Part shown: in pieces, positions 5,249-60,300 of the stretch
How positions within the stretch are numbered: position 1 is the stretch's first letter
Layout: every line of letters begins with the position of its first letter
NCBI GenBank assembly: GCA_001724265.1
Contig: MEDY01000064.1
Coordinates: forward strand, 62,001-126,000
From: Rhizaria sp. SCN 62-66
Lineage: Eukaryota
DNA: 64,000 nucleotides
Direction: 5' to 3'
Position numbers and translations under genes: made by a program
The notes under the pieces: model-generated
Database searches by the model: none
What the model was told of the DNA's origin: nothing
Seen by the model: only the letters and a program-made list of their open reading frames with translations

Positions 5249-5701
5249 GCGAGCAGTAACCAACACAACACAATGATCCGTTGGACAACAAGCATCTATG
5301 GCTGCGCGCAACAGGTGAGAAAGTGACAAGCCAGTGAATAATGACTGCTTAGTTGCTAATCTCAACTGTTAAATCGCTGTTTGCCTCATGCTGTCGATGG
5401 GGGGAAGATTGAGTTACGTTTGAGTTTGTCTGAGATGGGTTATGTTATCTAGTAAGTACAGTATTAATTGAAACAGGACACGTAGTCACTGAGAGTCAAG
5501 TAATTATTAAAAATAAAAAACACACATTTTAACACATGACGCCCGTCAAAACTGATGTTGTATTGTAATTACATGTACAAGTGCGATACATGTGAGCTTC
5601 CCGCCGGTTTCTGCGTGTTGATTGGCCTGCAAATCACAGCATGGAGTTGCTGCCATGTTTATATCAGGTCAAAAACTGTTTTTGTGCCAATTGACATCGT
5701 T

Positions 5702-14159: not shown

Positions 14160-16264
14160 TCAGAAGTCGAGGTACACGTCGAGCGGAAAGCTGACCATAG
14201 CTGCGAGCGCCTTGACGTCCTCGAGCGCGAGCGTCGTGGCAAGCTTCCAGTCCTCGACGGCCTCCGACCGGCCGGCGTCCGCGCGCACAAGCAGCTTGAG
14301 TCCCACGAGTCCTCGTAGACGCGCGGTCAGCAGCCCCCAGGGCAGCCCGGCCGCGGCGGGCGCGGGCCGCTGCGGGAACGGGTTGGCGACGAGCGTGGCG
14401 TTGTTGACGGCGCCCGTGTGCGCGTAGGACCCGGCGCCGAACCCGGAGTTGACGGTCTGTCCCTGCGGCGCCGTCACGGGCTTGCCGCAGAGCCCGAAGG
14501 CTAGCAGCGGGGGCACGCCGAAGTCGAGCAGCGCCGTCGTGACGTCGATGCCCGCCGTCGCCGCGCGCCCGCTGCTGGCCTGCGCGAGCGACGCCTCGAC
14601 CAGCGACGACGCGCCCGTGCCCGCGCCGCCACCAACGCCGCCGGTGTACTGATGCTGCGACAGCGAAAAGGATAGCGATTGCGACGGAGTGCCCGGTGCG
14701 TTCACATCGCCAGCACTTGCACCGCTGTTGTTGTTGCCCCCGTGGTAGCTGTTGCTGTTGCTGTTGCTGTTGCTGTGCGAGAGCGAGAGCTTGCGCGCCG
14801 TGAGCGGCGTCGCAAAGGCCCCCGCGACGGGCACCGCGAACACGCCGCCGAGCCCGCTCGCAGCCGACGCGCTGGGCGTGCCGAACGGCGACTGCGCGGC
14901 GCGCATCAGCCCGCCGCCGCCAACGCCGCCGCCGGGGGACTGTGCGCTGCGGCCGCCGCCAAGCCCGCCCAGCCCGGCCGCGAGCCCAGCCGTGACGCTG
15001 TTGCTGGCCGAGAGCAGCCGCAGCGGGTCGCCGCTGCGCGCGCTGGCCGCCGTGGCCGCCGCCGCCGCCGCCGCCGCGGCGACCGCGTGCGATCGCCCCG
15101 CCACCGTGGCGGTAAAGTTGACGAGGCTGACGTTGCGCGAGATGCTCTGGAAGATGGTCAGCAGGCGCTCCACGGGGAAGGGCTTCGCGCCCAGCAGCGC
15201 CGCCGATAGCACCGCGCGGCGCGTGGAAGAGAGCGCGTCGCTGCCGTGGCGCGCGCGGCGGCGCGGCGTCCCGGGGCCCGCGGCGCCGCCGCCGGTGGTG
15301 GCCGGCGGGAAGACGATTGCGTCGTCCTTGGGCGGGACGAGCGAGGCGAGCGTGGCTGCGAAGAGCAAGTACTGCGAGAAGAGCGGCAGCGCCAGCAGAG
15401 GCGCAATCGACGCGCTCGCGGGCAGCGGCGGCACAGGTAGCAGGGGCAGCAGCGGCTCGCCGACAGCGGGCGCAACAGCAGTGGAGCTCGCGCCTGCGTC
15501 GTTATTGCCGGCGCCGCTACTGCTCGACTTTGACTCGTCTGTGCCGTCGTTCAGAACATTAGCCTTTCCTGACTTGACTGTAGTCGGGGCTGACCGCAAC
15601 AAGCCGCCGCTATTCCGACCTTCTTCAGCGTCAGTCATCGCTACAGCACTCGCAGAGGCACTGCACTTCGACACATTCGCGCTGCTAGTCGCGGCCGCAC
15701 CGCCGTCGCCGGCCGCGGCGCCCTGCCTGGCCACGGCAGCCACAGCGGCGGGCGCGAGCGCGAAGACGCTGAGCACGCCCGCGAGCTGGGCCTCGCGCTG
15801 GTACAGGCACTGCGAGGCCGCCGTGACCAGCGGCGCGAGCGACTACCACAACACTGGCGGCAGCGCGCGCGCGGGCAGGAGCCGCGCCACCGCCGCTGCG
15901 ACTGCAGCAGGGTCTGCGTTACTGGCGTCAAACTCGATGTCCGGGCGAGCGTTCACACTGGACGAGTTACCACTGCCGCCGCTGCTGCAGCTGCTTGTGC
16001 TGTTTGCAGTAGCCGCGATGGAGACCGCGGCTTGTGTGTAGTGGTACGCGTACACGCACGCCGCAAGCGCTGGCAGGAGCGTGGTGGTGCTGAAATACAG
16101 CTCCCGGACGTCGTTGCAGCCGAGCGAGCAGACCGACAGCGTGAAAGCCACAAACGCGCGCACCACGGGCGGCTGCACCAGCGCCGACAGACGCAGCGCG
16201 GGGCCGCCCGGCGGCGCCAGCAGCGGGGGCAGCGTCGGCAGGACTAACGCAATCGGCGATGCAC

Positions 16265-16360
<96 letters not shown>

Positions 16361-17622
16361 GTTGTGACCACTGTTTGCGTTCGTGCCAGCTGACGACGGC
16401 GACGACGGAGCAGCGGCGCTTGCAGAGGACAACAAGGCTGACGGTGACGACGGTGTGGCGGGGCGCGATGCAAGAGTGCGACTGTGTGCCGGCGGGGTTG
16501 CGACGACACCGGCGATGGTGAAAGAGCGCGCCGAGTGCGGCCGCCGCGACTGCGACTGTGCCAGCTGCTGCTGTTGCTTGAGCTGCTCGTAGGCGGCCGA
16601 GTACGTCGGCAGCAGCTGTAGCAGCACGGGCAGCAGCGACGCCGGCGGGGCCGCGAGCGGGAGCAGGGGGTCCTGAGTCTGCAGCTTGCGGGCAATGATG
16701 TCAGTCAAGGCGTCTTCGGAGTAGGCAGGGAAACGTAGCGGAGTCACCTGCGAGAAAGAAAAAACACAAGGGTAAAATAATTAAATAAGACTTGTTTCCG
16801 ATACACAAACAAAGTTCCTGTTGTCCAAATAAACCCGTGAGATGCACATTCTTGCATTTGTCTCTGCGTACGTACCTCCATGCCGATGTCTTCCCCGAGC
16901 GAGGGCCAAATGCCGCGTGAGATAAACACAACGCCAATTGGGGCCGCCAGCACGTCGGCTAGCCGCACAAGCTGAGCGAGCATCGAGCCCAGCAGCGGCG
17001 CCACCGACGCCGCGCCGCCGCCGCTGCCGCTGACACCGCCGCTGTTACTGCCACCGAGGCGCCGCAGGCGCTGCGCGTCGTCGATGACGATGTAGAACGG
17101 ACTCGTCTCGCACAGCAGCGGTGGCGGCGCAGGGCGCGCGTTAGCCCGCGCCGCGGTGGCCGTGTCGCGCGCGGCGGCGAGCAGCGCGATAAGGTCGCCG
17201 ACGCGGTCCGGCTGCCGGTCGCGGTGGTTGCGGAAGTCGCCGTAGTCGCCGTCGACCAGCGGGGCCGCGGGATCCAGCAGCGCCGCCGCAACGGCCGCCA
17301 CGCGCGGGGCGGCGCCGCCAAAGTAGGGCAGCATGTCGTCGGCGAGCTGGGACAGCAGCGCGCGGTCGGAGCGCGCCGTGGCGAGGTCGAGGTGGCTGTG
17401 GGGCACTTTCAGCGCAGACAGAACGCTGCGGGTGAGTGCGGTCTTGCCCGTACCGCCGCGGCCGTAGATGTGCACGCACCGGGTCACAAGCGCCTTGCTG
17501 CTGAGGAGCAGGAGAAGGGAGTCGACCTGGTCCGAGCGGTGCGGCCACTGGGAGCTCAGCGCGGCTGCTGTCGCACTCAGGTTCATGTGCGACGAGCTGG
17601 ACGCAGCCAGTTTGGAAGACAT
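14160..17622 (-). CDS. ORC5: Origin recognition complex subunit 5 (~1110 aa if an in-frame TAG and a 1-nt frameshift are bypassed)
   Basis: Exons 17622-16876 and 16747-14160. Motifs: WPHRSDQVDSL, IYGRGGTGKT (Walker A), YIVIDDAQRL, LRFPAYS, CNDVREL, LW*SLAP..LYQRE, LPLFSQYLLFAA, LLGAKPFPVERLLTIFQSI, VSFPLDVYL. The frame breaks at the edge of the (AAC)31 tract near 16360. In-frame TAG at 15845-15843. Stop TGA. Confidence 0.85.
16266..16363 (-). repeat. (AAC)31 trinucleotide microsatellite inside ORC5 exon 2 (poly-Asn), with one imperfect unit
   Basis: Perfect GTT units at 16266-16358, then GT, then one more GTT. Confidence 0.95.
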
Positions 17623-33051: not shown

Positions 33052-35157
33052 TTACTCGAGCACCTCGGAGAACTCTTCCTCGGTCGGCTTGCGCAGCCGG
33101 CGCGCGCCGCCCTTGCCGCCGGCAATGCCAACGGGCCCCGCGCCGGATACCACCGCGCCACCGCTGCCGTTGCCCGCACTGCGGCCGCCGCCGCTGCCGT
33201 TGCCGCCGCCGTTGCTGTGGCGGTTGGGGGCGAACTGCGCCTCGGTGCTGCCCTCGCCCATGGCCGCCGTGGAGGCCAGCCCGCCCGTGGCCGCGCGCAG
33301 CATTGCGTCAGCGAGCTCCGCGCCCGACCAGCGCTGGTGCATCAGCGTAGAGACGCCGAGGCGTTGCTCCTGGCGCTGGACGAGGTTCACGTAAGCCAGC
33401 ATGTAGTCCTTGGCGTACGCGCGCGCGAAGTGCGTGGTGATGAGCGAGTTGGCGTGGAACCCGGCAAGCGTGATAAACTGCCATACAAACCCCGCGCGGC
33501 CAAGCTCGAGCTGGAAGTCCCGGATTTGACTGTCCGACAGTCCCGCGGCGTCCCAGTTGAACGACGGCGAGAGGTTGTATGCGAGCATCTTGCCGGGCCA
33601 GCGTGCGCGCACGGCCCGCGCGAAGGCCTGCGCCTCGGCCAGCACGGGCGACTTGGTCTCCATCCAGATCACGTCGCAATACGGCGCATAGGCCACCGCG
33701 CGTGCGATGCAGTAGTCGACGCCGCCGCGCACGCGGTAGTAGCCCTCTACGGACCGCGGCTTCTCGCAGCACCAGTATGGGTCGACGCCCAGCTGCTGCG
33801 CCAGCTCCCGCTGCGCCGCCAGCGACAGGCCCCGGTGGCGCGCGCCCCAGTCGGCCAGGCACTGCGCCTTGTTGGCAACCGCGGGCGACTCGGCGATGGC
33901 GCGCGCCACGGTCTCGGGGTAGGTCGCCAGCCCGGCCTTGCGCTCCCACTGCGCGCTCAGCTTCGCGCGGCGCGGCGCAGAGTCCTCACAGGCGGCACCG
34001 GCGGCCGCGGCGGACTCGGCAAGTTCGCGGAGCAGCGCGTTAAGCCCCTGCTGGTTGGGGTTGGTGCTGCCGAGGATGAAGGCCGCGTCGATATCGTCGA
34101 CGTTATTGTTGAGCAGGGTCGCCGCCTCGGCGTCGGTGCGGGCGACGATCACCGTCTGCGTCCGCATGATGTCGCACTGCAGCCGCGCCGCGGCCAAGCG
34201 CGTGATGTGCTCGCGGACGGGCACGAGGACCTTACCGGCGTTGTGTCCACATTTCTTGGTGCCGGCCTGCTGGTCCTCGATGTGGATGCCCGCGGCGCCC
34301 GCCTCGACCATGAGCTTCGTCAGCCGCATCACGCTCGACACGCCGCCGTGGCCTGCGTCCGCGTCGGCGATGATCGGCCGGTAGTAGTCCACAAAGGGCT
34401 CCTCGCTCTCACCCGTCGCGCGCGCCCACGACCGCGCCTCGCGCTGCTTGCGCGCGTGGAAGTCTTGCGCGCGGAACAGCTGGTCGACTTTTTTCGGAAC
34501 TGTGTCGTACGGGTAGTCCGCCAGATCGGGCCCGGGTTCGTTGATGGAGCTGGCCGTGGAGGAGCACTGCCAGCCGGAAACGTAAACGGTTGAAAGAGAG
34601 GGCGCCATCTGGATCACCTGCACGGGGTCGAGTGCGCCGAACGTGTGCGAGAACTGGCCTTGCGCGCTCAGCGTCGAGAGCAGCTCCCACAGCTTCACGG
34701 CGGGCGCGGCACCGTTGTACCCACCACCGGCGGCCAGAGATGTAAACGCCGCCGCAGTGCCGTTAACACCGCCACTGCTGCTGCTGCTGCTGCTGCGCGA
34801 GCTGCCGCCGGCGTCGTAGAGCGGGAGCGGGGAGGTGAGACGCGCGACGTCCTCGGCCGTGTAGGGCCGCTTGGTGTCGGCGAAGCGCGGCTGCGACATA
34901 AACGCAGCGGCGGAGGACACGGCAGCCGCAAACGCGGAGTCCTCCTCGGCGGCCGTGCTGGGAATAGATAGGCCCGCGGCGGCGGCGACGTTGAGCGAGG
35001 CACTGACGTGACGGCCGCCACTCTGGTCGCCACTGCTGTGCGAGTTGTGACTCAGCCCGCGCTCGAGGATGAGGCCCGGGTGCTTGGCGAGTGCCGAAAC
35101 GGGGCCAGCCGCGCCTGTGTGACCCAAGAGGGTGTTCAGACGCGAGTGAGGGTTCAT
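33052..35157 (-). CDS. ICL: Isocitrate lyase, eukaryotic long form (701 aa, intronless)
   Basis: Motifs: [45 protein letters not shown], catalytic [42 protein letters not shown]. Stop TAA. Confidence 0.97.
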
Positions 35158-35636
35158 CGCGCGACTGTAATGATGTGTGGTGGCGAGGGCAAAGAGTCAG
35201 TGACGAAGTGAGTTGGACGATTAGGATGATGACAATGCAGCGATGAGAAAACATTATATAGGAGTATAAATACAAACACGTTGTTTTAGAAAACAGTGCA
35301 CATTGACTGCACGTAATGAACCTAGAGTTTACTTTGCTGCTTTCGAATACGTCCTGTCCAAAAGCTTTCAACGATCTAGGTCTCGTTGGGTCTTGCGAAA
35401 TGCACGGCAAAAAAACATGTCTTGTGCGAGGTCTAGAATCCGTCAACAGCAGTGTGTGCATTTTGCCACAATAATTAGAGTACAATCTAGTATTATACAT
35501 TCATTATGCATTGCATTTCCTTTGTGATGCTGATCATATCTTTCTTTTTGTGTGGCTCTGTCGCCGCGTCACTTCAACCTCCCACGACTTGCACTCGACT
35601 CTGACTTGCATCCTTCCTCGCAGACACATACGCTCA

Positions 35637-38504
35637 ATGAGCGTATTCTCCGGCTCTGCTGCCATCCTTGGCGACATGCGTTCTGCTGAGCACAAGGAGA
35701 TCCTGTCTCCTGACGCCATCCAGGTACGAGACACCACTGCTCACACTCAATCTCTCCTCGACGATAATCTGCAACAATGTTTGAATTGAGTCTATACCAT
35801 CGCGAGACTGTGTCATGCACTTAAACTAGACTTGCATTTGTAAATATGTGGCTAGTTTATTACTACAATGCAACGTGCCGAGCAGTATCACATCTTCTAA
35901 GTTTCCTAATGCACTTGAACAAGCCTAGGACTTCGCTCACCTCTGGTCTTACCTCTTCTCTTCGCTTCACGTGCATGTCTTGTCTGCAGTTCCTCGGCGA
36001 GCTCCACGTGCTATTCAACGCCCGCCGCAAGGACCTTCTCGAGGCGCGTCTCCGCCGCCGTGCGCAGGGCTCCCTGTCACTGACGCCGCTCGCGTCCCCC
36101 GGTGCCGTTGCCGCGGCCGATGTGCACCACCTGTCGGCGCAGAGCAGTTTCAGCGCGAACCCGGCGATGCAGCTTAACTTCCTGCCCGAGACTGCGTCAG
36201 TGCGCAAAGACCCTTCTTGGCGCGTGGCTTCCATCCCGGCGGACCTGCAGGACCGCCACGTCGAGATCACGGGCCCCGTGGACCGCAAAATGGTGATCAA
36301 CGCTCTGAACAGCGGCGCGCAGGTGTTCATGGCCGACTTCGAAGACTCGCACGCGCCGACCTGGGAGGGCACTATTGCGGGGCAGTATAACCTCAAGTAC
36401 GCCGTCCGCGGCACTCTGTCACTGACTGTGCCTGCCTCTACTAACGCTGGCGCTGGCTCTGCGACTGCAGCCAAGGCGAAGACGTACGAGCTGAACAAGA
36501 CAGGCCGCCTGGCGACGCTGATGGTGCGCCCACGCGGTTGGCACTTGCATGAGAATCACGTTCTCTTCGACGGCGAGCCTGCGTCCGCGTCCCTGTGCGA
36601 CTTCGGCCTGTACTTTTACCACAACGCTGCCGCGCTCGTCGCCAAGGGCTCGGGGCCCTACTTCTACCTCCCCAAGATGGAGTCGTACCTCGAGGCGCGG
36701 CTGTGGAACGACGTCTTTGCGTACGCGCAGCAGCGGCTCGGCATCCCGTACGGGACCGTGCGCGCGACGTGTCTGATCGAGACGCTACCTGCGGTGGTGC
36801 AGATCGAGGAGATTTTGTACGAACTCCGCCACCACAGCGCCGGGCTCAACTGCGGCCGCTGGGACTACATCTTCAGCGCGATCAAGACGCTCGGCCGCAA
36901 CACCAACACGAGCAACAGCAGCGCCACCAGCCGCAGCAGCGGTGTGAATGCGAACGGAGTGAGTCTTGCAGAAGCGCAGGCCTTGGGCGCGTTCGTGCTG
37001 CCCGACCGGCAGGCCGTGACGATGACGGTGCCGTGGATGGCGGCGTACGTGCAGCAGTTGGTTGCGACCTGCCACCGCCGCGGCGCGCACGCCATGGGCG
37101 GGATGAGCGCGCAGATCCCCATCAAGGGCGACGACGCCGCCAACGCCGCCGCCATGGACCGCGTGCGCGCCGACAAGCTGCGCGAAGTGACCGCGGGCCA
37201 CGACGGCACGTGGGTCGCGCACCCGGCCCTGATTCCGGTCGCCAAGGAGGTGTTCAACCGGCACATGAAGACTGCTAACCAGATCCCCGAGGAGGCCCTC
37301 AGCGCGCGCAGTCGGGCTGAGGGTACTGCTCAGGACCACTACTACGGCGCCGCTCCTGTCGTGGCTTCGAAGCCGGGTGGTGCGATCTTCGTGCCTGATG
37401 GTTACTTCAACACTGGCAACACGAGCACGAACGCGAGTAATGTGAGTGGTTTTGTTAAGAGTTACCACGATGTGACTGCGACGTGCAGCGACGGCAACAA
37501 CCACAGCGCAAGTGCGCACAGTGCAAGCGCATACGACTTGTTTGCCGTTTCCACTTCTGCGCACGCATTGAGCAACAGCACGGGCAACGTCAACAACAAC
37601 TCGAATCTTGGAGCTGCTGGCATCTTCGGTGTCACCGGTCATCCTCACAGCACAAGTGGCCAGAGCACGTCCAGTCACGCCACCAACGCAGGTGGTGTTG
37701 CGTGCGCTGGCGTTTGGGGCGCTGGCTCTGCGGCCGCTGCTCACAGTCACCACGACCGCATCGGGTCCAATAACGTGATCGGCGTCGACTACAACAACAC
37801 CAACTCGGGTACGTGTGCACTTCAAGAACACTACTAGAGTTTTTTTCGATTAAAGCTTTATTTCTGTATTCTACTTGTCTTCGAAGTTTTGGTTAAATTG
37901 ATTTAATTTTGCATTCGTCTTCTTTTACGTCGCTCAGATGCGATCGCCACGCAGCTCTCGACGCCCAGCGGCGGCGACGTCACGCTGCCTGGTATCCGCA
38001 ACTCAGTCTCCGTTGCCGTACAGTACATGGAGGCCTTCCTGCGCGGCATCGGCTGCATCCCCGTCAATAACATGATGGAGGACGCCGCGACGGCCGAGAT
38101 CTGCCGCGTGCAGCTCTGGCAGTACCGCGCGCACGGCATCCGCACCGTCTGCGGGACCAAGGTCGACGCGGCGCTGCTCAAGAGCATTGTCGCGGAGCAC
38201 GAGACGGCGACGCGGACCGCGATGGGGGTTGAGAAGTACAACAAGTCAAAGTAAGTCACACGATCATTTCGGCCCATGCAATCATTTCGATAGCTCGCTC
38301 TTGTGTCTGGTATGTGTGTATGAACCGATCTTAACTCGAAACGATTTGTACCTTCTGTTTTCACTTTGGCACTTTTGTTTTTGTAGGTTTGCGCTTGCTC
38401 ACAGTCTCCTGCTGGATTCGCTGCTGAGTGTGGAACTTGACGACTTTATCACATCCAAGTGCTACCCATACATCTGCACTGTGGCTGTCCCTGCTAAGCT
38501 CTAA
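35637..38504 (+). CDS. MLS: Malate synthase A, glyoxysomal (778 aa, 4 exons, C-terminal PTS1 -AKL)
   Basis: Exons 35637-35723, 35990-37808, 37938-38250, 38387-38504. Motifs: [89 protein letters not shown]. Stop TAA. Confidence 0.97.
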
Positions 38505-38722: not shown

Positions 38723-41700
38723 TCATTTTTTCCCTGCCGTCTCGCTCTCAAGCCGCCGGAAGAACCCCGCCAGTTTCCCGTGTACCTCTCCGTAACCAGC
38801 GCCGCGCACCATGTCCCTCGCGATCCACCCCGGCAGCAGCGCAGACACCGCTGGGCTCGAGTACCGGCTGTCGAGCAGCACGATCGCGGCGTAGTCGCGC
38901 GCGTGGCGCACGGCACGGCCAATCGATTGGTTCACAGAGCGCATGCAGAGGTTCTCGTAGTAACGCTCGCCAAGCGACTTGGGATTGGCGTTGCTCGCTG
39001 AGCTCGGATCGCTCGACAACTGGTGTTGCTGGTCCAAGCGACGCATTTTTTCCCGCAACTCGGGGTCATGACGATTCGGATACGGCATTCCAACCACAAC
39101 AACACACCTACACAGACATATTAAGACGAACAAAACGATTTTTTTGAAAAATGTTAGGTTCTTTGGTGCAAAAACGTAACTTGCATGAGAAGACAATATA
39201 AACAGTTTGTGGGACATACCGTGCTAACTCATCAGAGAAGTTGATGCCTTCACTCATCTTACCACCCATTACGCAAAAGAGCATGGCACCCGTCTGGGAT
39301 TGTGGCGGCGCGTCGACCTGCGTCTTCGATTGCAACTGGCGAGCTGCGACTGAGTATGCGTCGAATAGTGCTGCAAGGTCACTTGAGTCACGAGGCTCAC
39401 GGAAGATCTGAGATTCGCAAAATAGATAATGGGATCAAAAGTACATGAGAAATAATCGCAATTGGTACTATGTGATTATAAAGTGTTATGAAAAGGCAAA
39501 CCTACCTTCTTTTTGCGCTCAACCGTATCCCACATCGATACACCATCAGTAGCACCTGCACCCGCACCAGCTGGCACCATACTGCTGCTGACAGTGTTGT
39601 TGATTTGTGCCACAGCCGCACCGGTCGCCGTGTGCGTCTTGAGGTACTTCACCGCCTGCTGCTCAAACGCGTACGACGGGAAGAACACGACAACGCCGTG
39701 TGGCACCACACGCGTCAGATTCGCCAGTGTGGCCCCCAGCTCGCGCAGCAGTACAGGATCCCCGCGCTTGGCAAACGAGAACGACAGCGGCGTATGTGTA
39801 GCGGCATGCAGCGGGCCGCGCGAGAGGGCGGCAACAAGGACGCGGTCCGGCGCAATCACGTGACCGCACGCAAACGAGGTGATACGCTTGGGCGGAAGAG
39901 TTGCTTCGCGAGGCGTGGCAACACTCGTTGCAGCTGATAAGCTCGTTGGCGTTGCAGCGTTAGTGGTGCCCTCAGCAGCACTCGTTGTCTCGGACGCAGC
40001 CACTGGTGCTGATGGCTGAGTGTCGCCCCGCAACTGTTGTTCCAACAGTGCAAACGGTTGCATTGTGCCACCCGCAAGTACGATTGCGCGCGCCTGTGAC
40101 GCGACAGTCTCAAACGCAGGCCCCGCATTGAGCGCCACAAGCCGCGCAGACCACAAGGCTTTAGGGTTCGCCCGCGCAGTCGCTGGTGCAGGCGAACTTG
40201 CACTGTTCACGCCAGTCGTCACAGAAACAGTGGGTAGTGGCGTTCGGCGCAGCAAAATGCGTCCGTCGCTGTCTGGGCTGCGGAGGGAGCGAATGAGGTC
40301 AACTGTGGCTCGCGCCGCCGTGATCTGGAAAAGGCGCGCTGCTGCGGGCGTGTTGACTGAAAATAAACGATGAAGAGATGGTAATTAGACAAGAAATAAA
40401 TAAGCGATGTACGACTTATAAAACAAATTTGGATGGAAATGAAATCATAAGAATTTGAAAATGAACGCACCTTCTGGTGCTACCCAGGCCAATACATCGT
40501 CTTTTTCCTCGACAGTATTCGTAACAGCGTTGTTGTTGTTGGCATCTGGCTCCTGCTTCGTGAGAAACAAACCACGCGACTTGCCCGGCTCTGTCGGATC
40601 GCAAGGCTTCTTGGTGCTAATGCGATTGGCCAGCCCTGTTGCTGCCACGACGTCGCTCGGTAGCGCCTTCAAAGTTGCAGCGTTGATGCGAGCAACAACA
40701 CTGTCTTCGTCATCGAGCGCGCGACAGCTGCGAACATTGCTGTCGGTGGCAAGACGCGCACGCTTTGATGCGGGACCAGCGCTTCCAGTCTCATTGATAG
40801 TATCTTTTGCAGAAGGGAGTCCAAACCATGACGCATCGTCGGTAGGAGCACTTTGCGTACTCGCAGTCGTATTGATGATGCAACGAGTGGAGTCAATGTG
40901 CTCGATAAAACCGATCAATTTCCGCATTAACATCGATTTGTCGACCCAAGCACATAACGTGAACAGGTTGATGTTGTCGATGTTGGCAGCTACGCTCAGA
41001 ACATTGGGCCGGACAAGCAACGCTGTCTCATCTTCGTTGCTGCTGATACCCAACTCGGCATTAACATCTGTGCCCGCGCGCGTATCAGTGGTACTTAAAC
41101 TCACAGCAGGAGAACTCAAACCGCTTGCACTATCGTCTAAAGGCCTCCCATCCACTCCGCACCACTGGTCACTGGTCAAAAGATCAAACAATGCGCTCAC
41201 AACATTGACGAGCTGCGCAATGTACATGCGATTCTCCGCGCTCAGCCTCGAACTATAGCGCGCCTGATACGCCCTCAGCTGCCTGCGCGCGCAAAAGAGC
41301 TGCCCTGCGGTCGCGCCCGCGCTAGAGAGTGAGTGAATCGTCTCAACCAGATTGTGCGCCTCATCAACGACGATGACGTTGCCCTTAAGCGGGATCCCCA
41401 GCGCCTCGCGCGTGGGCCCGTGAAACAGCGCGGCGTAGGGCGCCAGCACCACGTCGGCCTCGGCCACGGCGTCACGCGACGCGTAATACCCGCACGCCTT
41501 GGCTGCAGTGCCCAGCGCGGTGATTTGCTCCAGGTCCATGACTTCGCTGGTAATAAGCTGGCGAAACGAGAACTGTGACTGCGGGCGCAAGTATGGGCAG
41601 CCACCTGTTTCGCGAGCCCCAGTTGCACTGTCACTAGCAGTTAAGTCACTCTCACCAAGGTCATCTTTAGTGATATTGCGGCTCTGAACGACGCCGTTTT

Positions 41701-43372
41701 GGGACGTGATTTTCGCAACCTTGTTTGGCTTTGACTGGCGGAGCTCGCTGCACTTGTCATTAATCGCTTCGGCCGAGCCAAGCGCCCTCACCGCAGGGTT
41801 CGTGCACAGCACAGCACGCGAGCCCAGCGACACGACCCGCAGATCCGTGTAAGGAGCCGTCGCCACGGCGGATCCAGGGGGAAACACACCATTAACGACT
41901 TTGCGCACTTCGCCAATCACCTGCGCAATCTGGCTGTGCGTGCGCGAGCAATAGATCAGCTTAGGCGTCATCGGTAGCAGCGACTCGGACGTCGCGCCGT
42001 CGCGCGTCAACGGCTTGTGTCCGCTGAGGTGGCCGAGACACTCCAGAACAGGCTTTAACAGCGCGCCAACGGTTGGGTATTGCATGATAACAGCGGATGA
42101 CAACGCGCCTACATTCGTTGTATCCCTGTCCTGGTCACTGTCACGGTCAGCGACGCAGTGGTTGCTCACAGGGCTCGGGTTGGTGATGCCAAGCGCCCGG
42201 TAAGCACTTTCGCGGCCTTCCTCTTGGGCCCGCTTGGTTTCCTCCGCATCGGTCTTGGCGCTGGCCGCCGCAGCGTCAGCCTCAGCAACGGCCTTGACCG
42301 CAGCCGCGACTGTGGTGATGATAGCGAGCGCAGCGTCGGTGTCGTCTGCGCCCGTGACCGTGCGCAAGAGCCACAGGTTTAGCCCCGCGTGCGTCGCGGC
42401 CGCGGCAGAAACAAACCCCGCGGCTGCGGTCATCGCGGCCGACGCGGCGGCGGATGCGGCGGCGGCGGCATCGGTGGCGGTGACCGCCGCTGCAGCGGCG
42501 GAGACCGATGCCATTGCCGCCGCCGTCGCCGATGAAAGCGGCGAATTCAGAGAAAGACCAAGAGCGCTGGCCAGCGACCCCATCGAGGAGCCTGCACCTT
42601 GAGAGTCCTCGGACATCGCAGTGTCTGCAAGAAGATACGCCGCGTCGCTGATTGCGCTCTCTACCGCAATCGCAGGCGCACCACTCGCTGCGTTTTGCCG
42701 ACCCTTGTTAATATTGTTCTTGCTGTTGCCGAAGCTGGTGTTCAGTCGGTACGAGGACCCCTCCGTGCGCAGGTCGTCCGCAATCTGCGCGAGTGTCCCG
42801 TGCCCGCCCGCGGAGCTCGCGCCGGCACAGTCGGCCACGAGGGGCGCACGCGTGTTGCGAGCGGCGACGAGCTGCTGCCGCACATTGCTGCCCAGGCGTT
42901 GCAGCGCACGACGCACCAGTGCGAGCAAGTGCAGGCGCTGGGCGCGGGTCTCTGCCTCCTGGTCCGCGACGGACTCGAAGAGCCAGTCGGGGATATCGCT
43001 GTCAGTAGATGATGATGATAATGAGGATGTGTGGGTCGAGGAGTCAGCACCATGAGTGCTTCCGGGCTATTGTAATACTGGGTCTATAGCGTTGCCATAC
43101 GCGTAGGCAGGAAAACGATGGAAAATCCAGTGCAGCGCTGCGCAGAGGATGGAGAGAGACTTGCCGGTGCCGGTGGGCGACTCGACAATGCCCACTGTCC
43201 CCGAGTCGATTGCGGTGTAGATCGCACGCATCAGGCCCGTTTGGACATTGTAGGGTGTCGAGTACGCAAACGGGATTGCGGGTGTGTTTGACGCATCTGT
43301 AACTGTTTGCAGCGGGGGCGCCGCCGATGTTGGAACTGGCGGTCCGTTAAGGGCCGGGGCGACTCCAGACAT
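38723..43372 (-). CDS. DDX11: DDX11/CHL1 Fe-S DNA helicase (1441 aa if the in-frame TAG at codon 102 is read)
   Basis: Exons 43372-40471, 40356-39506, 39407-39220, 39107-38723. Motifs: [29 protein letters not shown], four Fe-S Cys (LCTN, DKC, GCPY, ACGYY), [41 protein letters not shown]. In-frame TAG at 43069-43067. Stop TGA. Confidence 0.92.
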
Positions 43373-44204
43373 CGGAGATGTCTTGGCCTGACTTCAATGG
43401 GGACGACGCGAATAATGCTATGTGAGTCACAAACAACGTGTCCAAAAATATAATTACATTGTAGTTTTAAATGCACACTTTCGGGCTCTAAAATAATACT
43501 CGCACTTGTATAGACGGATCATTTACTGATATATCGCATCGTAACGATCGCAGACAATGGCGCGAGATGGGTCAACGATTATTTCATGTAAGCGAAGTGG
43601 GTGATTTTAGGATACCCCGACTTCAGGTTTGCAGCTCTTAACGCAAAAATAAAGGGACATATGCTAAATCTTAGTGTGTAAATTTAGCATGCACTATGAA
43701 TGTCTTCTGCATTTGTTCACATGATGTATCCTTCAAAATCAGCTACCCATACTGACTTTTATGAGGTTATGGTCGCACGGATATCATAGATGATACGTCA
43801 GATTAAAGTAGTGTGTTTATCTATTGATTGCAAATACGACAATTGCATCTTTAACTTGACAAGTGTCGGTTCCAATCTGTTCATTCGTAAGATGCAATTT
43901 TGCAGTGACACATCTGCGTTTGAATGGAGTTTATTGCATCAAGGACTCATATGATGTTGTTGCAACCACAGTATACACATCAATACCAGCATTCAATTAA
44001 CATGCATCGAAGTTGACCAAATTAATCCTTATTTGATCGAGATATCGGACAAAATGTGAACTTGACCAGCGACGGCCCACGCACCGAGTAATCCTTTTAG
44101 TCTGCTTCTAAAATTTTGCCAGCAATGCGGTCCGATCCGGTTAGTGACCTCTTGGCGTTGATCGTGAAATCTCCGCCTCCATTTGTTGTGTACAACTACG
44201 AACA

Positions 44205-50767: not shown

Positions 50768-51334
50768 TCTGTTCTATATAAAATGTAAAAGAAGATTAAT
50801 TAAATATGTGTTACGGTATACCTACTAGTATAAGTCATATGTGCACTGACGGATTTCTGGGACTGTTTAACCGAGCTGAAATCAGACAGCTGACGGCATC
50901 ACCCACGGCTGCGGAGGTGCAACCGGGTCACAACTGAGACATCACGTAAAACAACACGGTGGAGGGGAAGACGAACATTAATAAGAATATAATTTGCACT
51001 TACTGAACAATACTTTGGGTACACCTCCTGCATAATACTTACATTGTCTTATTACGATCAAACATATCGTACACAGTGTCTGATTTCCTTTGGCGCGCAC
51101 CGCTCTCAACCAGCACCTAGACATTCGCGGCAGATATCTCTATGTAGCAACTGATTCAGCTTGCTTGACTCACACAACACGTTCATGTATCACTTTTGTT
51201 TTTAGAAATAATCAGATCATTCTAATATCGGTTGGGTTGTTATCAGTTGACCTTTTCGTCCACACTTCACCTGATCTATTGCGCCTTCGCGCCGAAGCCG
51301 CCGCGCTCGCTGCCCCTCTGGCGTTAATCACAAG

Positions 51335-54300
51335 ATGTTTACCATCACACGCTACACCCCCGACGAGGCGGTTGCCTCCATGCGTGACCCCTCGCTGCAG
51401 TCCGAGCTCCCTGTGACTGCGCCGCTGCCGTACGCGGTCTGGAGCCCTGCCAGCTTCGAGTTCCAGCTCGACATCGCTACCCGCGCCTACGAGACCGGCC
51501 TGCTCGCGCTCGCTCAGAAGCAGCCCCGCAAGGCGCTCGCGCACTTTAACGCGGTGCTCAGTCTGCCGTTTGCCGCGCACGCGCCCGTTGCGCCGCTGTT
51601 TGCGCACCTGCGCGGTCTGACCCTCGCTGCGGCGCGCGACGCCTGCGTGCGCACGGCGGTCGCGTCTCTGTCTACGGCCGAGACCAGGCACAAAGCGCTT
51701 GAGGCTCACCGTGACGCTGATAGCAGTGCGAGCGAGGAGCGTCGCTCTGGTTATGATGCTGCGTGCAGTGCTTTTGTGACTCCTGTGACCGAAAGCGCGA
51801 GTGCCACAATTCTTGCTGACTACGCCTTAGACGTTGCGCTTACTTCTGCCTCGCAGGTGCCGACGTTGCGTGGCAAGCGCTCTATGCTGCTTGCGCGCGG
51901 CGGTGAGAGTGCGCCGCAAGTGCGCGTTGCTACCAGCGGTGATCTGTTTGACAAGGAGTATGACTTTCACGGCACGTACTCGCTGACAAACCCGTCATTC
52001 GCACAGCAACACGGCCAAGAACAATTCAATGAAGATAACATGCTTAGCGCCGTCAATAACGTAATGCTCGACGCGAAGACTGACCCTCTTGTGAGTATTG
52101 AGACTCTGTGCGCGCGCGGCTGCAACGTGTACGGCGTGCCGCCGCCGCGCGCGTGGGCCCGCTCAGAGCGCGTGCGCCTCACTGCGACTGTGAACGCTGC
52201 TAAGACGCTCCAGAAGACTAAACCTGCAACACCCGTCACTGTTGTTAGCAGCCCTGCTACCACCACTGCCAGTGACAACAATGCTGATGAAACCGGCGAT
52301 GTAACAGCGATACATGACAACGGCAGTGTGGGTGAGAGTCAAGTTGCTCCGGCACTGCCTGTTGTGCTCCCAGCAGGCCCGCTGCCTGCGCCGCCGCCGC
52401 TAACTCCCCCGCAGCACCGGCTGCTGGCGTCTGCTCTGCGCAACGCGGCGCTGGCCCACGAGCAGCTGGCCGCGGTCTGGGGTGACACCTTGCGCACCGT
52501 CTCTCAAGCAACGCTCAGCCACACTGAGGATTCCCACAGCGAGGACTCTGAGCACGCCAATACGGCCCCCACTGTGCCGAGCTCGCTTGATGCTGCGAGC
52601 CTCATGCTGTTGCACTCTATCGCGGCCTCTGCGACCGCCACGGCAGCGCTGCTATTCACGACGCCGCTGCCCCAGCCTGCGCCCGCGCCGCCTCTGCCGC
52701 CCGTGGCCGCCGCTGCTGCGCAGGTTTTACTCACGGCCACATCGTTTTCTGGTGTTTTCCCGACATCTTGTCTATTTTTGCTGCAAACCAGCAGCAGCCA
52801 AAATCACAAATCCATCGTTGACCTGACTTCTCGTGCGGCTTGCCCTTGCTCGCGCGCCGCGCCCACAGTCAGCAGTCGCAGCTACACGAGTGTGGACTCC
52901 CCCGCGGGGACCACATGCCGCTGTGACGGCTCGTGCCTTGAGGCAGGTGACTGCGCGTGCGGCTGCGGCTCCGACTGCGGCAGCCGCGGCGGCGACTGTG
53001 CCGATCTTCTGCACACTGAGATGACTCCGTTCGAGGACGCACGGCGCTGGCTCGTGCGCGACCGCTGGCTACTCTGGCGCCACCGCTACTATGCGCAACA
53101 GCAGCTGCTTCCTGCAATGTCGCAGGCTGCGGCGGCCTCGTTTCTCTCCTCTGGCGCCGCTGCCGCCGCGCCGCCGTCGCTGCGGTCGCTGCTGCTCCCG
53201 GTGGGCGCCACCTCCGGGCCCGCGGTCGGCGCGGACGCCGTGGTGGTCGTTGGCGGCCAGCGTGTGCGCTCGCTGCCGGTCACAGTTGCAGCAGGATCTG
53301 TGACAGATTTGCCGCTATGGCGTCTACTAGGACTGATCCTGTTGCGCTCTGTGCTGCCGTTTGTTGCCGCTGCGGCGCCGGTGTCTGTCGCTGCAGTAAC
53401 TACTGCTGTTGATGACCATGCGATTGATGATCACGAGATGCAAAACGCACCTCTGTGGTTACAGCCGACTGGCCCCGCCTCTGTGCCCGTTGCTGTGGCC
53501 GGGCCGTCTCTACACGCACTTGCAGCCGCAGTTAAGCCAATGCTGCTCGCGTCACTTGTCGCATGTGCCAGCGGCTCAAGTTCTCGCTTTCATAACCGTA
53601 TCTTGGCTGGCAATACTTTTTCTCTCGTCAACAGTCATTTAGCTCGACTTCCCGCAGCACACGCCTGTTTAACGACGGCGTCATACTGTCTGAACTATCT
53701 TGCCACTGGCTCCATCTCAGCCACAAATGGCCAGAACGCCAGCCTTGGTGCTGATGCTTCATCTTTACGCGTTGTATCAGCCGCGCTGAACGCAGCTGCG
53801 CTGCGCTCCGACTCCACAGCCGCCTCAACACTGGCGCACATGGTGCTGGCACTGCTGAGCAACGCGAGGACAGGTACCATGATTGCGAGCGAAGCCGGTG
53901 CAGGCGTCAGGGCTATGGCAGCCCTGTCGTGGGCTGAGCCGAGCGCAACCACTGCGGACAGTAATGTAACTGTTGGTGGTGTTGAAGTCGCAGCATTGGC
54001 CACAGCTGAGGCGGTCGCGAATGCGGTCGCTCTTGCCGCGACTATCACTGTTGACAGTCATGTTGCCGCTCTTCTACACTGGGTGGCTAACGTTCGCTCA
54101 AACACCGCGACAAGCAGCACGGCCTCTGGTTCTTTCACTACGGAGACATCTGATATCAAACATAGCACGGTTACAATTAGCGCCAAGAGTAAGGGCAATC
54201 GGGAAAAAACCAGTCGCGTATCGGTCTCCGCTTGTTCCAGTGATGTTATCGATGATAATGGCAATATGGACTGGGGCTCACTGCTGTCTGATCCACTCAC

Positions 54301-57300
54301 GCAGTCTGGCGTGACGATGGGCGATGACCCTGATACCGCGATGTCTGCATCACACAGCATTGCTGTCAACGGAGAGGCTTCTGCCGCTGTAAACGGGATG
54401 ATGGCCCAATGGGTTCACTCTCGTGGCATCAACCGTGCGACTACTGTGGCTGAAGTGGGTTCGCCTTTGGTAGCATCATCATCCCCGACCGCAATCACGG
54501 CCGAGTCCGACGTTTGGGGTTGGGCCTTGTATTGCCTCACTCTTGACCCGTTCCATGCTGCGCAATACTACCTCAGCAACACATACGGTCAGTACAGTGG
54601 GTCGCGTTTGAGCCCTCGCATCGGCTGTTTTGCACAGTATCACAATTATGTTGCGAGTGCGCTCAGTTCTGACAGCCGGATCGTCCTTAAGTTTCCTCCA
54701 GCTGCAATCGATGCCATCGGTCACAATGTTGTCGATAGCGCGTTTAAGCCTGATATCGAGCTGGTTTGTGAGGTCTCGTTGCCAGCAAAGGCGACGGCCT
54801 CCGTCTTTTCGACGCACGATGCCACCGATGAAAGCAGCGCTGATATCGCACCGAAGCCGTTGTGGAAAATGCTGCCGTTACTCCGACTATCCCAAACACA
54901 GACCTCCTCAGCAGTTACTACCTCGCATGGAGACATTGGAAACCACGCGCGCGTGATGTCCCACATCACCTCTACAGTGGCAAAGTCTACGTCGGCGAAC
55001 AGCGAAGATAACGAAGAAAACGATGCTCTTAGTATTGTTCTATGGTCGCAACTGCTCTCCACGCTGGCTCTCACGGCGGAGAATAACTCTGCGTCAATGT
55101 GCACAACAGTCGCATCCACTGTATCAATGAATGTTGACTCAAAGAACCACAACAACGACAAATCTAGTCAGCAACAGCAGCAACAAAAGATGGTATCTTT
55201 GAGCGGCCGCGAGTTGTACTATGCTAGCGGCCGTCGCCGCAATGCCAGCCTTACTGCTGGCCTGCTATCATTGCCTCTCCAAGTGCGTGTGGGTCTACAC
55301 AATGAAACAAACGACGGTGACGCCGTCACAACGAGGATGACTGACTCTGCATCTGCAGCAGTTGTTGTCCCAAGTCATGCTGATCATGCGCTTCGGGATG
55401 CCGATGTTGCTATGCCGGTTATGTTTGGTGTTGTTCCCACGCCTATCTGCGTATCCGCGGCTGCAGTTACTGTCCCAACTCTGATGCGACCCGTCGAAGA
55501 GAAATCAGTGAGCGACATTGTCAAGTTGGCGGAAACAACATCTGTCGATAGCACAGTTGTTTCGATGAGTGATGGCGAAGCAAGAGACTCCGTCACCGCA
55601 CTTGTTGACACTGCATCTAAGACGGGTGCGATGAGCGCTACTGAGGCGTTGTTTAAAGCGACAGCTGATGCCATAACTGATGATCTCACAAACACTATGA
55701 TCGACCAACCTGATGAGGCAAATAATGTTGCATCTCGCCCCAGAACTCCGGTCCCCGTTATGGAAATGACGGATGCTCTTCAGGACAACGATTTCGCAGC
55801 AACAGCTGATGAGACTGTGAGTCCGGACACCGCTCTTACGACGGCGACTGAGACTGACGCCTGCACCGCTGTGGCCGTGGATAGCGAGAACGCTGACAGC
55901 AATGTTCGTCGCACTGGCCGTCTGCGTCGCCAGGTTACGTCCTTTGATGGCAGCGTTGCTTCGGAGAACGAAACTACATCCGAGGCGGGTGACAATAGCA
56001 ATGAGGAATCGGAGAGTGTTGGCGACAGTACTGATGATGACGAGGATGAAGGTTGGGTCACGTTTTCTCGTCCACACGCGCTACGCGCGGGCCTATCTAG
56101 TATCCGTAATGCTAGTAAGCCTAGCAGTCAAACAAAATCGCGCAAAGGCTCCGCAACAAGCATGGTCAACGATGACGATGATGACAACGATGTCGATGCA
56201 GCAGCTCGTACTGTCAGTGATGACAACAGTGATGATGACGACGACATCAAAGTGTACATCTCTTCTCTGGGCACTCACGCGACTGCGCGCGCCAGAATGG
56301 CGACCAATGCCACTGCAGTCACGTTCCTCACCCCTGCACATGACTTGCTGGAGCCTGCGGTCATTGCCGACATGTGTGCAGACGAGGACCTGACTGCACT
56401 TAACCGGCCGAGCCTGCTCAGCATCAGCAGTGATAGTGGAAGCAAGACTGCGATTGCATGCGCGGTGAAGGCGTTACAAGCGAACGCGAAGGAGCAACAG
56501 CTCGCTCTGGACTCAAATAGTGACGACGACAGCTGCAATGTTGTTCGCACCGCGATGGTGCTGGCGTGTGCGGACGCACCGGCATCTGATGATTCTGTTC
56601 CTGCCGGAAATGCAATCGGAGGCTCGACAAAGGATGGTAGTGACTGTTCGAGCGATAGTGATGACGTAGCCGTTTCAGTGCCGTTGTTGCAGTCAGTTAT
56701 TACACCCATCTCGTTCGCTGAGCGTATCAATAACGTCGGCGTCCAACGTGGTGCTCGCAGCAAGACTGATTGGTCCCGTGTCTCCACTCTACTTGGATTG
56801 GATAGCCAATCCAGCCCATCCTCTTGGCGCGCATACTTTGCCAACGGAGCACCACAGTCAGGGACGCAGTCGTTGTCATTGCCTCTGCGCGCTGCTGGTT
56901 TGTTGACGCACCTTGCTATCAGCGTCGTTCCGACTGCCGCGTTTGCACCTATCGCTGATTCTACCATGGGTTTTGTCCGAGAGGGCGTGAATGATACGTC
57001 CCGTGATCTCTGGCGCAGCGTCTTGACGTCAGCACCTTTACGCTCGCTTGCGCCACTCGCTCGCATTGTCGTCAGCACTGGCGTTCTGACCGCGAATCAG
57101 CTTACCGCTGAGTATGATGCCTTCGGAGTGAATAACAGCGATCGCGAAACTTATTCTGCCAAAACTGGTGTTGCAGTTGTGAAGGCTGCACTTACTGCAC
57201 AACTTATGGCTGAGGTACTTCTGAGTTCGACTAATTCCATTGATGGCGCCTCCAGCAACAGCAGCAACGTCAGCTTAGCCGCAGCACGGACAAATGATGC

Positions 57301-60300
57301 AGTTGATACAAACTGTATCACTGTGACTGCAGGTATCGATGGAACGACGCCAATCTTCTCACTGCCTGCCATCGCATCTGACTGTCACGATGATAATCAC
57401 AAGCTCGGAGGTGGTCCGGACAAGTCAAACACGGCTACGAAGCCTCGCATAAGCAAGTCAAAGCGTGGTAACGGTAATAATCAGCCAGTCCATGCCAACT
57501 CCACAACACAGTCTTCTTTCACAGTTAATCCTCTTGCGGGTATGTCCACGCAATGCAGCAATGTTCTCTTCAATGGCGCACACCCTGACGTTGTCAAGGA
57601 TATTCTTGATCAAGCTCGTACGTTTGTCAAGGCGGTACAATCTCTCACATCTCGCATCGTCGCCGTAGCGGCCATCAGCAGTGAGGATGGCGACTGGCAG
57701 CTCCTTTCAGCGCTTGCACTCACCATCTCCACACGAGCACGACTCTCCGCATACACGCTCTGCTTCGTCGAGGCGCAGACCGCCGCTCAGATTGCTGCGA
57801 CTGCAAACGTCGATGACAGTCCTGAACGTCATTGTGATCCACCTTCGTTTGAATCGACTGCAGCTGCAGCCGCTCTCGAGGTTGTCGTTGGTGCTGCCAG
57901 CGATATCGGCCAAGACACTCTATTGCTCGATCGCCGGCAGGCTCTACTCGACGCAACAACTGCGTTGACTCTGCAACCCACTGATGAGTCACCTTCCGCG
58001 CGCGCCGCTGCTGCAGCAGCCGCAGCTGACGCCGCACTGGCGGAGCTTGAATCTGCACTCATTGCGTTACCGTCTTCGTTCAAGACTGTATACGTCCCTG
58101 TGGCGCCGCCGCTGCCCGTGACAGCTTCGCCCGTGTCCGCGAATGGTACGATGTCGATTGCACGTGTGCGCGCACGTGCTGCGGCTCGGGCTCGCGCACG
58201 TGCGACTGCAGTTGCTGAGCAGGCTGTGTCGGATGCTGTATGTATTGCAACTGCGACAATGCCGCTTAAGGTTTTTGTCTCCTCGCATATCCCGGATGCG
58301 ATCAAGAGCAGCAAATCAGATGTTGCAACTATAACAGATGATCCCAGTGTTCATGTCGCTGCCGAGTCTGACAAGCAGTGGACATGCTCATGGGCAGTAG
58401 TTGCGCAGCCTCTGACCATGTTTTCGCAAGCGAACTCACTTTCATCCCTCACAGCATATGCGTTGTCTCTGACCCCTGGATCTCGCGCTGCTGTGGTGGC
58501 TGTCGCAGCGTGTCTCGCTCAAGGCGCCCGCCGCGCCGCTGCTGCAGCAACGCTGCATCACGCCCCTCTTATGGAGAGCCCGGTTCTCGCCTCACACAGT
58601 GACCATGATCGAGCATTGATTGTTGAACCGACTGTTCCCATCCGTCAAGAGCTTGCACCCGTCATTTCTCTTGCTCGTTCTGTGATCACCGCCATGTCAG
58701 GGTCCTTCAGTACTTCATCAAGTACCAGCGCAACCTTACCTGAGTTTGCGCTTGCCATGTACTTACTCGCAGCCCAACTATCCTCTCTGCAAATCATTGT
58801 GTTGACGGCGACCGCACTGCCTTCTATCGCAACAGCAACAGGCAATGGGGTTTCTGTTCCCTTGGATCCCCTTGCATTTGCGCATGCAACTGCCATGAGT
58901 TTTGATGAAGCTTATGTGTCGGAGTCCTCTTCATCGGCGTCAGCGTCTGCAACAAAAGCAACGCCGAACTCAGGTGTCACTGATGTCTCCGTGAGTACGT
59001 TCTTTAGCCTTAGCCATGCTGTATCGTCTCTGCAAGATGTTGTTACTGTTCTGACAGCAACTCCACCGCAGCATGGTGACTCTGGCGCAGGCGCTTTATA
59101 TAGGGCCTCGCTCGCTGCCGCAGCCACTGCAGATGCTTCGGCAATGTTAGTCTCCATCTGCTCCAACGCAGCTGTGAACTCTGACGAGAGTCGCAAATCG
59201 TCACATCCTCACGTTTCGAATGTGACGGAGGCGGGTGCCGATGCCGAGGCTGACGCAGACAGCGAGCCAGACGTCGCAGCGCGCGCTGCTGCTGCTGCTG
59301 CACTGTTTGCGAGCGTATGTGCGCTTCCTATGGCGGATGACCCAGCGAGTGCTGTCGCTGTGGTCGCAGCGCAAGCGGACAGCGGTCGTCTGCTTTCGCT
59401 CCTACCGCAACCGTGGGTTGCCGTAACCCCGAGTACAGATGCTGATACTGTGGGCGTGTCTGCGGACGCTGCTAAGATTGTGAAATCTATCATGCTTCAT
59501 CAAATTGCGTCTCCGTTATACGCCCTGTTGATGAAGTCTCTTGTGCTATCACGTTGTTCGCTGATGCCCGCAATCACTTCCGAGCCCACCTCAGAAACCA
59601 CGGCTGTTCCTACAGTCACCCTAACACGATATCTTGTTGCTGGTCTTGTGCCCCGTGTTTTGTCGTGCGCATTTGCTGCTCACAGCGCTATCAGTTCGCT
59701 GACCAGCATTGCGAAGAAGCAACAGAGTGCTGATGCAGGCGAGACCGCTCACTGGACGCTACTCACTCTATCGCACTTGCCGCGCACGCCTCTTTCAGTT
59801 ATTAAGTGGCTCCGTGGAAACGCGCACTTGCTCTTCATGCGTTCATCCAGCTCCCGGACTGAGCAAACGAACACTAGCAGGTGTAGTGCAATGGGTAACG
59901 GCAGTAACAATATCCTCTCATTCCGCAACATGGCGACTTCATACATCCAGAATAGCAGCGCAAATCAGGGGTCTTCTGTTATCGCTGCGGCTGAGTCGGC
60001 CGTGCGTCGCTCAGCGTGCGCACTGGTACTCCCTAACGCCGCTCGCTCCTTGACTCGTGCGCTCGCTGCTGCAACTGTGCTTCCGGTCACGGCGACGATG
60101 ACTGGGGCTGATGTAGAGCCGTTTGCTCTCGCGCTAGGTTCCACTCAAGTGCGGACGCCGGCGCTTGCGCTTGTGACAAACCTGTCGACCAATATGCTCG
60201 CCGACAGTGCAGCGCTTTGTCCGCTCACAGTCGCTCCGACCGCGCGACTGCCCGCCAATAACGCATCTGTCGTTATTGCTACATTTGCCAGCGCCGTTTC

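Follow-up and report, generated by a model that had tools for sequence, protein, structure and literature searches.

An in-frame UAG in DDX11 of an uncultured, probably rhizarian flagellate and the likely use of UAG as a rare sense codon

The helicase gene DDX11 (Chl1) of Rhizaria sp. SCN 62-66 carries an in-frame TAG near its start. It lies in a stretch of 64,000 nucleotides (G000:C64:62001-126000; contig MEDY01000064.1), here called the window, which belongs to a eukaryotic assembly of 34.9 Mb in 714 contigs. On the minus strand the sequence reads GAC CCA GTA TTA CAA TAG CCC GGA AGC and, counted from the ATG at 43372, the TAG is codon 102. The gene has three introns of 98-114 nt, and its exon limits rest on GT/AG sites and homology rather than on spliced reads. 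The features at the locus are as follows.

38723..43372, minus strand: DDX11/Chl1 gene, with exons 43372-40471, 40356-39506, 39407-39220 and 39107-38723 and a terminal TGA at 38725-38723.
43067..43069, minus strand: DDX11 codon 102, TAG, in the variable linker between the post-Walker A helix and the PDW helix.
42999..43100, minus strand: candidate frame-preserving GT-AG intron of 102 nt that would cover the TAG, an improbable rival to reading the codon.

The original prediction, made from the sequence alone, had placed an in-frame TAG at this codon, and both the sequence and independent DNA contigs bear it out. Contigs X2 (42540-44000) and X3/X4 (42049-43307; the two look like a single data set) span the site with 0 differences and 0 gaps, so a base-call error, which had been named together with a heterozygous SNP as a finding that would overturn the claim, is unlikely. 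No alternative letter is listed at 43067-43069 in any contig, although contigs drop rare variants and a rare allele is therefore possible. The DDX11 TAG is confirmed as genuine. The frame had also been said to stay open long after the TAG with the iron-sulphur (Fe-S) cysteines and helicase motifs intact. We counted ~865 further open codons up to the first intron at 40470 and, in an alignment of 54 DDX11/Chl1 sequences, Walker A, the four Fe-S cysteines and the DEAH box all fall in invariant or near-invariant columns. The product matches DEAD_2 (E 1.7e-40) and also carries the helicase C domain that marks the DDX11/Chl1 family; over the aligned part of exon 1 it is ~95 residues longer than its closest relative (P0255). 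Termination at codon 102 would wreck this helicase, and the earlier argument, by which the codon is decoded or removed, was right as to decoding. In the AlphaFold model, codon 102 sits in a coil (pLDDT about 50) flanked by confident helices. Because this predicted coil is floppy, almost any residue should be tolerated there, so the DDX11 site does not tell which one is used.

An RNA-library contig, X5 (43000-43158), retains the TAG. Since introns 1 and 2 are still present in other X5 contigs, X5, whether DNA or pre-mRNA, is uninformative on mature mRNA and splicing. Frame-preserving introns of 12 and 42 nt had been proposed to remove the codon. We rejected both, as they are far shorter than DDX11's own introns and than any of 87 modelled introns (minimum 100 nt; a filtered set, and the model is noisy and in part circular), and their acceptor scores are low. 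An ordinary intron over the site had been considered as well, and here a real candidate had been overlooked, the 102-nt stretch at 43100-42999. Under this alternative the genome-wide code change described below would be real while the DDX11 TAG itself would be spliced out. The candidate is GT-AG, has a typical length divisible by 3 and contains CTGAC, which resembles a branch-point motif. Its acceptor outscores all 79 decoys and 25% of modelled introns, whereas its donor is weak and is exceeded by 86% of them. The stretch scores as slightly non-coding (-0.25), but other exon-1 windows are similarly low (-0.18, -0.21), and its composition (GC 0.48, T 0.24) is unlike that of DDX11's three real introns (GC 0.28-0.33, T 0.39-0.50). 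Unspliced, the linker between the two flanking tryptophans (W to W) has 47 aa, just above the homologue maximum of 45; spliced, it would have 13 aa, against 19-45 in 47/47 measurable homologues. In P0255 this linker has 27 aa, with no space for such an intron. We regard splicing here as distinctly unlikely and conclude that the DDX11 TAG is very probably read. Even if real, the 102-nt intron leaves the genome-wide code change untouched.

To follow the behaviour of all three stops, coding and non-coding Markov models were trained on homology-confirmed and long open reading frames (ORFs), and every stop in 886,400 bases (~2.5% of the genome) was classified. In strict cases, where the stop follows at least 60 strongly coding codons, coding continued past 19/29 TAGs, compared with 0/77 TAAs and 1/63 TGAs. 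The remaining ten strict TAGs were inspected: three are intron read-ins (one in a methionine aminopeptidase gene, with coding resuming past the acceptor) and four are internal; the frame of one is doubtful, and the last two are ambiguous, with 8 or 16 coding-like codons and then a TGA. Once intron read-ins had been removed by eye (about 7 TAA and 11 TGA), the ~120 gene ends of this sample comprised about 70 TAA, about 50 TGA, no clear TAG and the two ambiguous TAGs. UAA and UGA remain terminators and do not occur in frame, whilst UAG is almost certainly a sense codon in this organism.

Curation gave 36 internal TAGs, made up of 28 of 30 automatic candidates and eight found by inspection; L057 -5403 and L139 +9425 were dropped for doubtful frames. 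In about 190,000 coding codons this is ~1 per 5,000-6,000, a rate slightly inflated by 11 kinase regions that were picked because they were TAG-flagged. TAG is 4-5x rarer than ATA, the rarest sense codon (1 per 1,330). The 36 sites include eRF1, five kinase domains and two helicases, and they lie mostly in poorly conserved stretches; by a PDB search, the Brr2/ASCC3-like site falls where sequences vary. Among 142 kinase matches, nine contained TAG only, five of these being internal and four intron acceptors. Searches by family yielded few TAG sites, and many of the flags for a TAG inside a family match were likewise intron 3' ends, including all the kinesin, SNF2 and dynein flags examined. No internal TAG was found in the ABC (20 matches) or SMC (13 matches) families. 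Dynein has zero TAG in 16,313 codons, which we attribute to a broad avoidance of rare codons in dynein (ATA 2, AGA 2, TTA 1). By our estimate, 1,300-1,500 codons genome-wide would be miscalled as premature stops, and ordinary annotation would miss recoding this sparse.

The original prediction had looked for a mechanism local to DDX11. The many internal and few terminal TAGs, together with a tRNA(CUA) gene, point instead to a genome-wide change of code. A leaky CAA-UAG-C context had been suggested, yet the base at +4 is varied over the 36 sites (C 14, G 10, A 8, T 4) and resembles the base following GAG. A common leaky context (UAG-CARYYA or C at +4) was not found across these sites, and the eRF1 site is TAG-A. 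Programmed gene-specific read-through was rejected, since no context is common to the sites and TAG is not a normal stop at gene ends. A-to-G editing, also suggested, finds no second letter at the DDX11 site in any contig, though contigs show editing poorly.

A pattern search for CTA anticodons gave four matches at three places, one of which, G000:C84:76008-76080, is a true tRNA. This tRNA(CUA) is a 73-nt cloverleaf (58 bits to Rfam tRNA) with a T-run terminator behind it and is single-copy by BLAST. It sits between the genes for Vps39 and a formin and is thus not on a bacterial contig. Its closest match among the organism's recovered tRNAs is tRNA-Glu(CUC), with 47/73 identical positions. In our reading of the cloverleaf, on which the numbering is based, the acceptor pairs U1-A72, C2-G71, C3-G70 and C4-G69 are common to both of the organism's tRNA-Glu, and the discriminator G73 is shared with tRNA-Glu(UUC). 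The tRNA also has U11-A24, U13-G22:A46 and no base 47, features described as major tRNA-Glu determinants in E. coli (PMC9976931), which may apply to eukaryotic glutamyl-tRNA synthetase as well. The organism's own tRNA-Gln (CUG and UUG) differ in the acceptor stem, carry U73 and lack A46. ARAGORN labels the tRNA(CUA) 'Pyl' from its anticodon alone; the body is a normal cloverleaf nearest to tRNA-Glu. No tRNA with a UUA anticodon was recognised among 29 pattern matches judged by eye, a search that intron-bearing or unassembled genes would escape.

The gene for the release factor eRF1 has one strong locus, in G000:C63, and carries an in-frame TAG in its N-domain; a weaker second locus resembles pelota by our reading. 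Because the TAG lies inside eRF1, synthesis of eRF1 itself requires UAG to be read. The codon aligns gap-free to human E107, a column that holds E in 109, D in 10 and V in one of 120 homologues, and never Q or K. The identical exon, TAG included, recurs in a metagenome contig of unspliced DNA (L163). Exon 2 has a third-position GC content (GC3) of 0.89 and none of the six rare codons checked, yet it has one TAG, whereas dynein of similar bias has none; we estimate the chance of a TAG in this one gene at a few percent. The protein has substitutions T32S, G57S and L124M (each in 0/120 homologues), T58K (1/120, the close relative P0005), L126M and K130Q. Residue T32 contacts the G of UAG, and the eRF1 of Iotanema has T32G (PMC5304391). 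The closest relative's eRF1 (P0005) shares T58K, M34V, F114V and L188P and keeps T32 and G57. A search for eRF1 loci of relatives, complete with flanking sequence, yielded none.

The explanation we favour, and consider fairly probable as a whole, is a variant nuclear code in which UAA and UGA are stops and UAG is a rare sense codon, likely Glu via tRNA(CUA), with the DDX11 TAG read. UAG would be read by the single-copy tRNA(CUA), derived from tRNA-Glu, which would be expressed and charged with Glu, and competition from eRF1 would be weak enough for read-through to dominate. The TAGs may have arisen by point mutation from neighbouring codons at tolerant sites. DDX11 would then be made full length, most likely with Glu102 in its floppy linker.

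Two tests bear on the residue. Pfam domains cover 5/36 internal TAGs, and with TAG read as each single-base neighbour the summed bits at these five sites were E 410.9, K 409.6, Q 409.3, S 406.7, Y 403.4, L 401.1 and W 398.8. Leu, Tyr and Trp are disfavoured and Glu is narrowly ahead. Among scorable sites, eRF1 107 is the only conserved column under a TAG. A test of flank composition over all 36 sites, which recovered the true residue in 218-294/300 control samples, gave L +4.2, E -3.2, K -11.4, S -22.3 and Q -34.7 bits, so that no residue matched. Such a result is to be expected of TAGs that point mutation produced from a variety of codons where change is tolerated, and it speaks against Gln. 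If UAG is sense, we take Glu to be its probable meaning, mainly from the tRNA.

Several observations weigh against this assignment or against the code change itself. C36, which counts among the strong determinants of tRNA-Glu in E. coli (PMC9976931), is no longer present in the CUA anticodon. Four of the five Pfam sites are variable, and E leads K and Q by just 1.3-1.6 bits. The flanks of the 36 sites, with E at -3.2 bits, are unlike those of typical Glu sites. The single V at eRF1 107 belongs to the closest relative, P0005 (84% identical), showing that the column is not fixed in the lineage. eRF1 retains E55, Y125 and N129, which are linked to UAG recognition (PMC3632111, PMC4381064), and in human eRF1 the T32S change leaves termination normal at each of the three stops (PMC3632111). 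eRF1 may therefore still recognise UAG, and the codon is perhaps ambiguous. The assembly was binned from a metagenome, and the contig with its small-subunit (SSU) rRNA looks foreign. Lastly, several TAGs lie in poly-Gln runs (L120, L134, L100) and two stand opposite Gln in a mobile-element-like ORF, L222.

The poly-Gln and L222 sites would suit a code in which UAG is sense genome-wide but means Gln, or a mix of Glu and Gln, with glutaminyl-tRNA synthetase (GlnRS) charging the CUA tRNA despite its Glu-type body. Amber suppressors can be mischarged by GlnRS, and Q falls 1.6 bits under E over the five Pfam sites. UAG to Gln is also the commonest known change (PMC11687900). However, the organism's own tRNA-Gln differ from tRNA(CUA) at the acceptor stem, discriminator and position 46, and Q occurs at eRF1 107 in 0/120 homologues. 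CAG is one transition from TAG, so Gln-like sites would be expected, whereas Q scored -34.7 bits; E minus Q in the flanks is +31, against a median of -107 in true Gln samples. We consider Gln a rather unlikely meaning.

Under the standard code, the TAGs would be nonsense alleles, pseudogenes, assembly errors or leaky stops, and tRNA(CUA) a minor suppressor or a pseudogene. The rarity of in-frame TAG, its concentration in poorly conserved stretches and the UAG-sensing residues kept by eRF1 all lean this way. So does ORC5, a second gene of the window with an in-frame TAG, which is also changed in frame within a microsatellite. Random damage, however, would yield in-frame TAA and TGA too, seen at 0/77 and 1/63, and the essential eRF1 gene carries its TAG in two assemblies. 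Gene ends lack TAG and the sites have no read-through context in common. A standard code is strongly disfavoured and, in our judgement, very improbable. The ORC5 features are these.

14160..17622, minus strand: ORC5 gene, consisting of an AAA exon, an intron at 16875-16748 and an ORC5_C exon, ending in TGA.
15843..15845, minus strand: in-frame TAG of ORC5, followed by 560 open codons holding ORC5_C.

The frame of ORC5 exon 2 changes in or near an (AAC)n microsatellite (16300-16370 of the window, minus strand, near 16360), likely through an assembly slip; otherwise the gene is broken. Because the same gene shifts frame in this tract, its TAG is weak evidence. A PDB search gave no ORC5 match.

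A more tentative proposal, possible though doubtful at present, is that the lineage is in an ambiguous intermediate stage of UAG-to-Glu reassignment, and that the UAG in the N-domain of eRF1 acts as a negative-feedback sensor. A single tRNA-Glu(CUA) would compete with eRF1, which would retain some recognition of UAG, and UAG would be purged from gene ends and tolerated sparsely within genes. Such incomplete competition would account for the scarcity of UAG within genes and make the eRF1 UAG a feedback sensor: in this one gene, more eRF1 would lead to more self-termination at its own UAG. The feedback idea draws support from eRF1 exon 2, which has a TAG but none of the rare codons checked; it is weakened by being drawn from a single gene and by the Val at 107 in the closest relative. 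Bacterial RF2 autoregulates through a frameshift at an internal UGA, and the proposed eRF1 feedback would be a eukaryotic counterpart. In plants, a read-through and nonsense-mediated decay (NMD) circuit at the terminal stop of eRF1-1 lets the release factor mRNA sense termination strength (PMC5397192). Unlike that circuit, the putative sensor here would be an in-frame UAG within the eRF1 N-domain coding sequence, in competition with a tRNA.

The nearest parallels in the literature are rhizarian exLh (Sainouroidea, UAG=Leu) and Iotanema spirale (UAG=Gln), which also have UAG as sense and UAA and UGA as stops (PMC5304391). A CUA tRNA was predicted there, whereas here the gene is in the assembly; eRF1 position 32 is changed in Iotanema (T32G) and here (T32S), and L69, which is L69A in exLh, is intact here (PMC5304391). 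They differ from this organism in that here the residue is probably Glu, UAG is very rare and a UAG lies in eRF1's own gene. Known UAG-only codes give Leu in exLh and TARA ciliates, Gln in Iotanema, Hartmannula, Trochilia and Protocruzia, and Ser in Scotinosphaera (PMC5304391, PMC11687900). In phyllopharyngean ciliates (Leu or Gln), Protocruzia tuzeti (Gln) and Scotinosphaera (Ser), the tRNA(CUA) derives from a canonical isoacceptor, as it seems to do here; PMC11687900 lists no Glu among its UAG-only cases, and the present organism is no ciliate (introns about 100-200 nt, GC-rich exons). Oligohymenophorea sp. PL0344 likewise reads UAG as Glu via a tRNA-Glu-derived tRNA(CUA), but UAA is Lys there; it has 10 tRNA(CUA) genes as against the one found here, where UAA is the main stop (PMC10553269). 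In peritrichs and Blastocrithidia both UAR codons mean Glu, so UAA is reassigned too, unlike here (PMC11687900, PMC12153298).

A nuclear code with UAG as Glu and UAA as stop was not found in the literature, of which subscription journals were incompletely covered; in the codes described there, UAG=Glu goes along with a reassigned UAA. UAA and UAG nearly always change meaning together. If true, UAG=Glu with UAA as the main stop would be a new code table and, for Rhizaria, probably a second reassignment of independent origin. A single genome supplies the tRNA gene, the eRF1 gene and the codon statistics. Very low UAG usage suggests an early stage, at which stop-codon capture becomes testable (codon capture against ambiguous intermediate). 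An eRF1/tRNA pair that favours UAG read-through whilst terminating at UAA and UGA would also interest those working on genetic-code expansion.

Most public runs that contain the stretch are metagenomes from bioreactors, wastewater and activated sludge. In a quick DDX47 tree the organism falls, with weak support, in an environmental clade beside the chlorarachniophytes Bigelowiella and Amorphochlora and apart from the animals, plants and stramenopiles. CFAP300 and at least 11 loci for dynein heavy chains mark it as a flagellate. It is probably an uncultured rhizarian. The bin's only SSU rRNA (L141, G000:C706:4459-8903) is AT-rich and divergent, with several large group I intron-like insertions; it is presumably similar to the rDNA of heteroloboseans and may have entered the bin as a contaminant. 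Host ubiquitin (L220, L223, L224) starts MSMQIFVK, in which a Ser precedes the canonical Met, and at positions 9-10 A-N replaces G-K. The extra Ser recalls what we take to be the cercozoan polyubiquitin insertion; a polyubiquitin array is absent from the assembly.

In the modelled intron set the dominant donor is GTACGY (GTACGT, GTACGC, GTACGA; 55/87), not GTAAGT or GTGAGT. Elsewhere in the window, the glyoxylate-cycle genes for isocitrate lyase (33052-35196, minus strand) and malate synthase (35825-37837, plus strand) stand head to head with a probable shared promoter, and one open, low-complexity frame of more than 4,240 codons (51275-64000, plus strand) runs off the end. The L222 ORF (G000:C681:1000-5500) is virus- or transposon-like; it contains an internal repeat and combines a ubiquitin domain captured from the host with a Peptidase_S74 chaperone domain, and both it and a neighbouring ORF contain in-frame TAGs and no TAA or TGA. 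The eIF4A-III family usually has QSGTGKT, and an eIF4A-III-like helicase of this organism (L097, G000:C47:89440-89928) has QPGTGKT just before Walker A.
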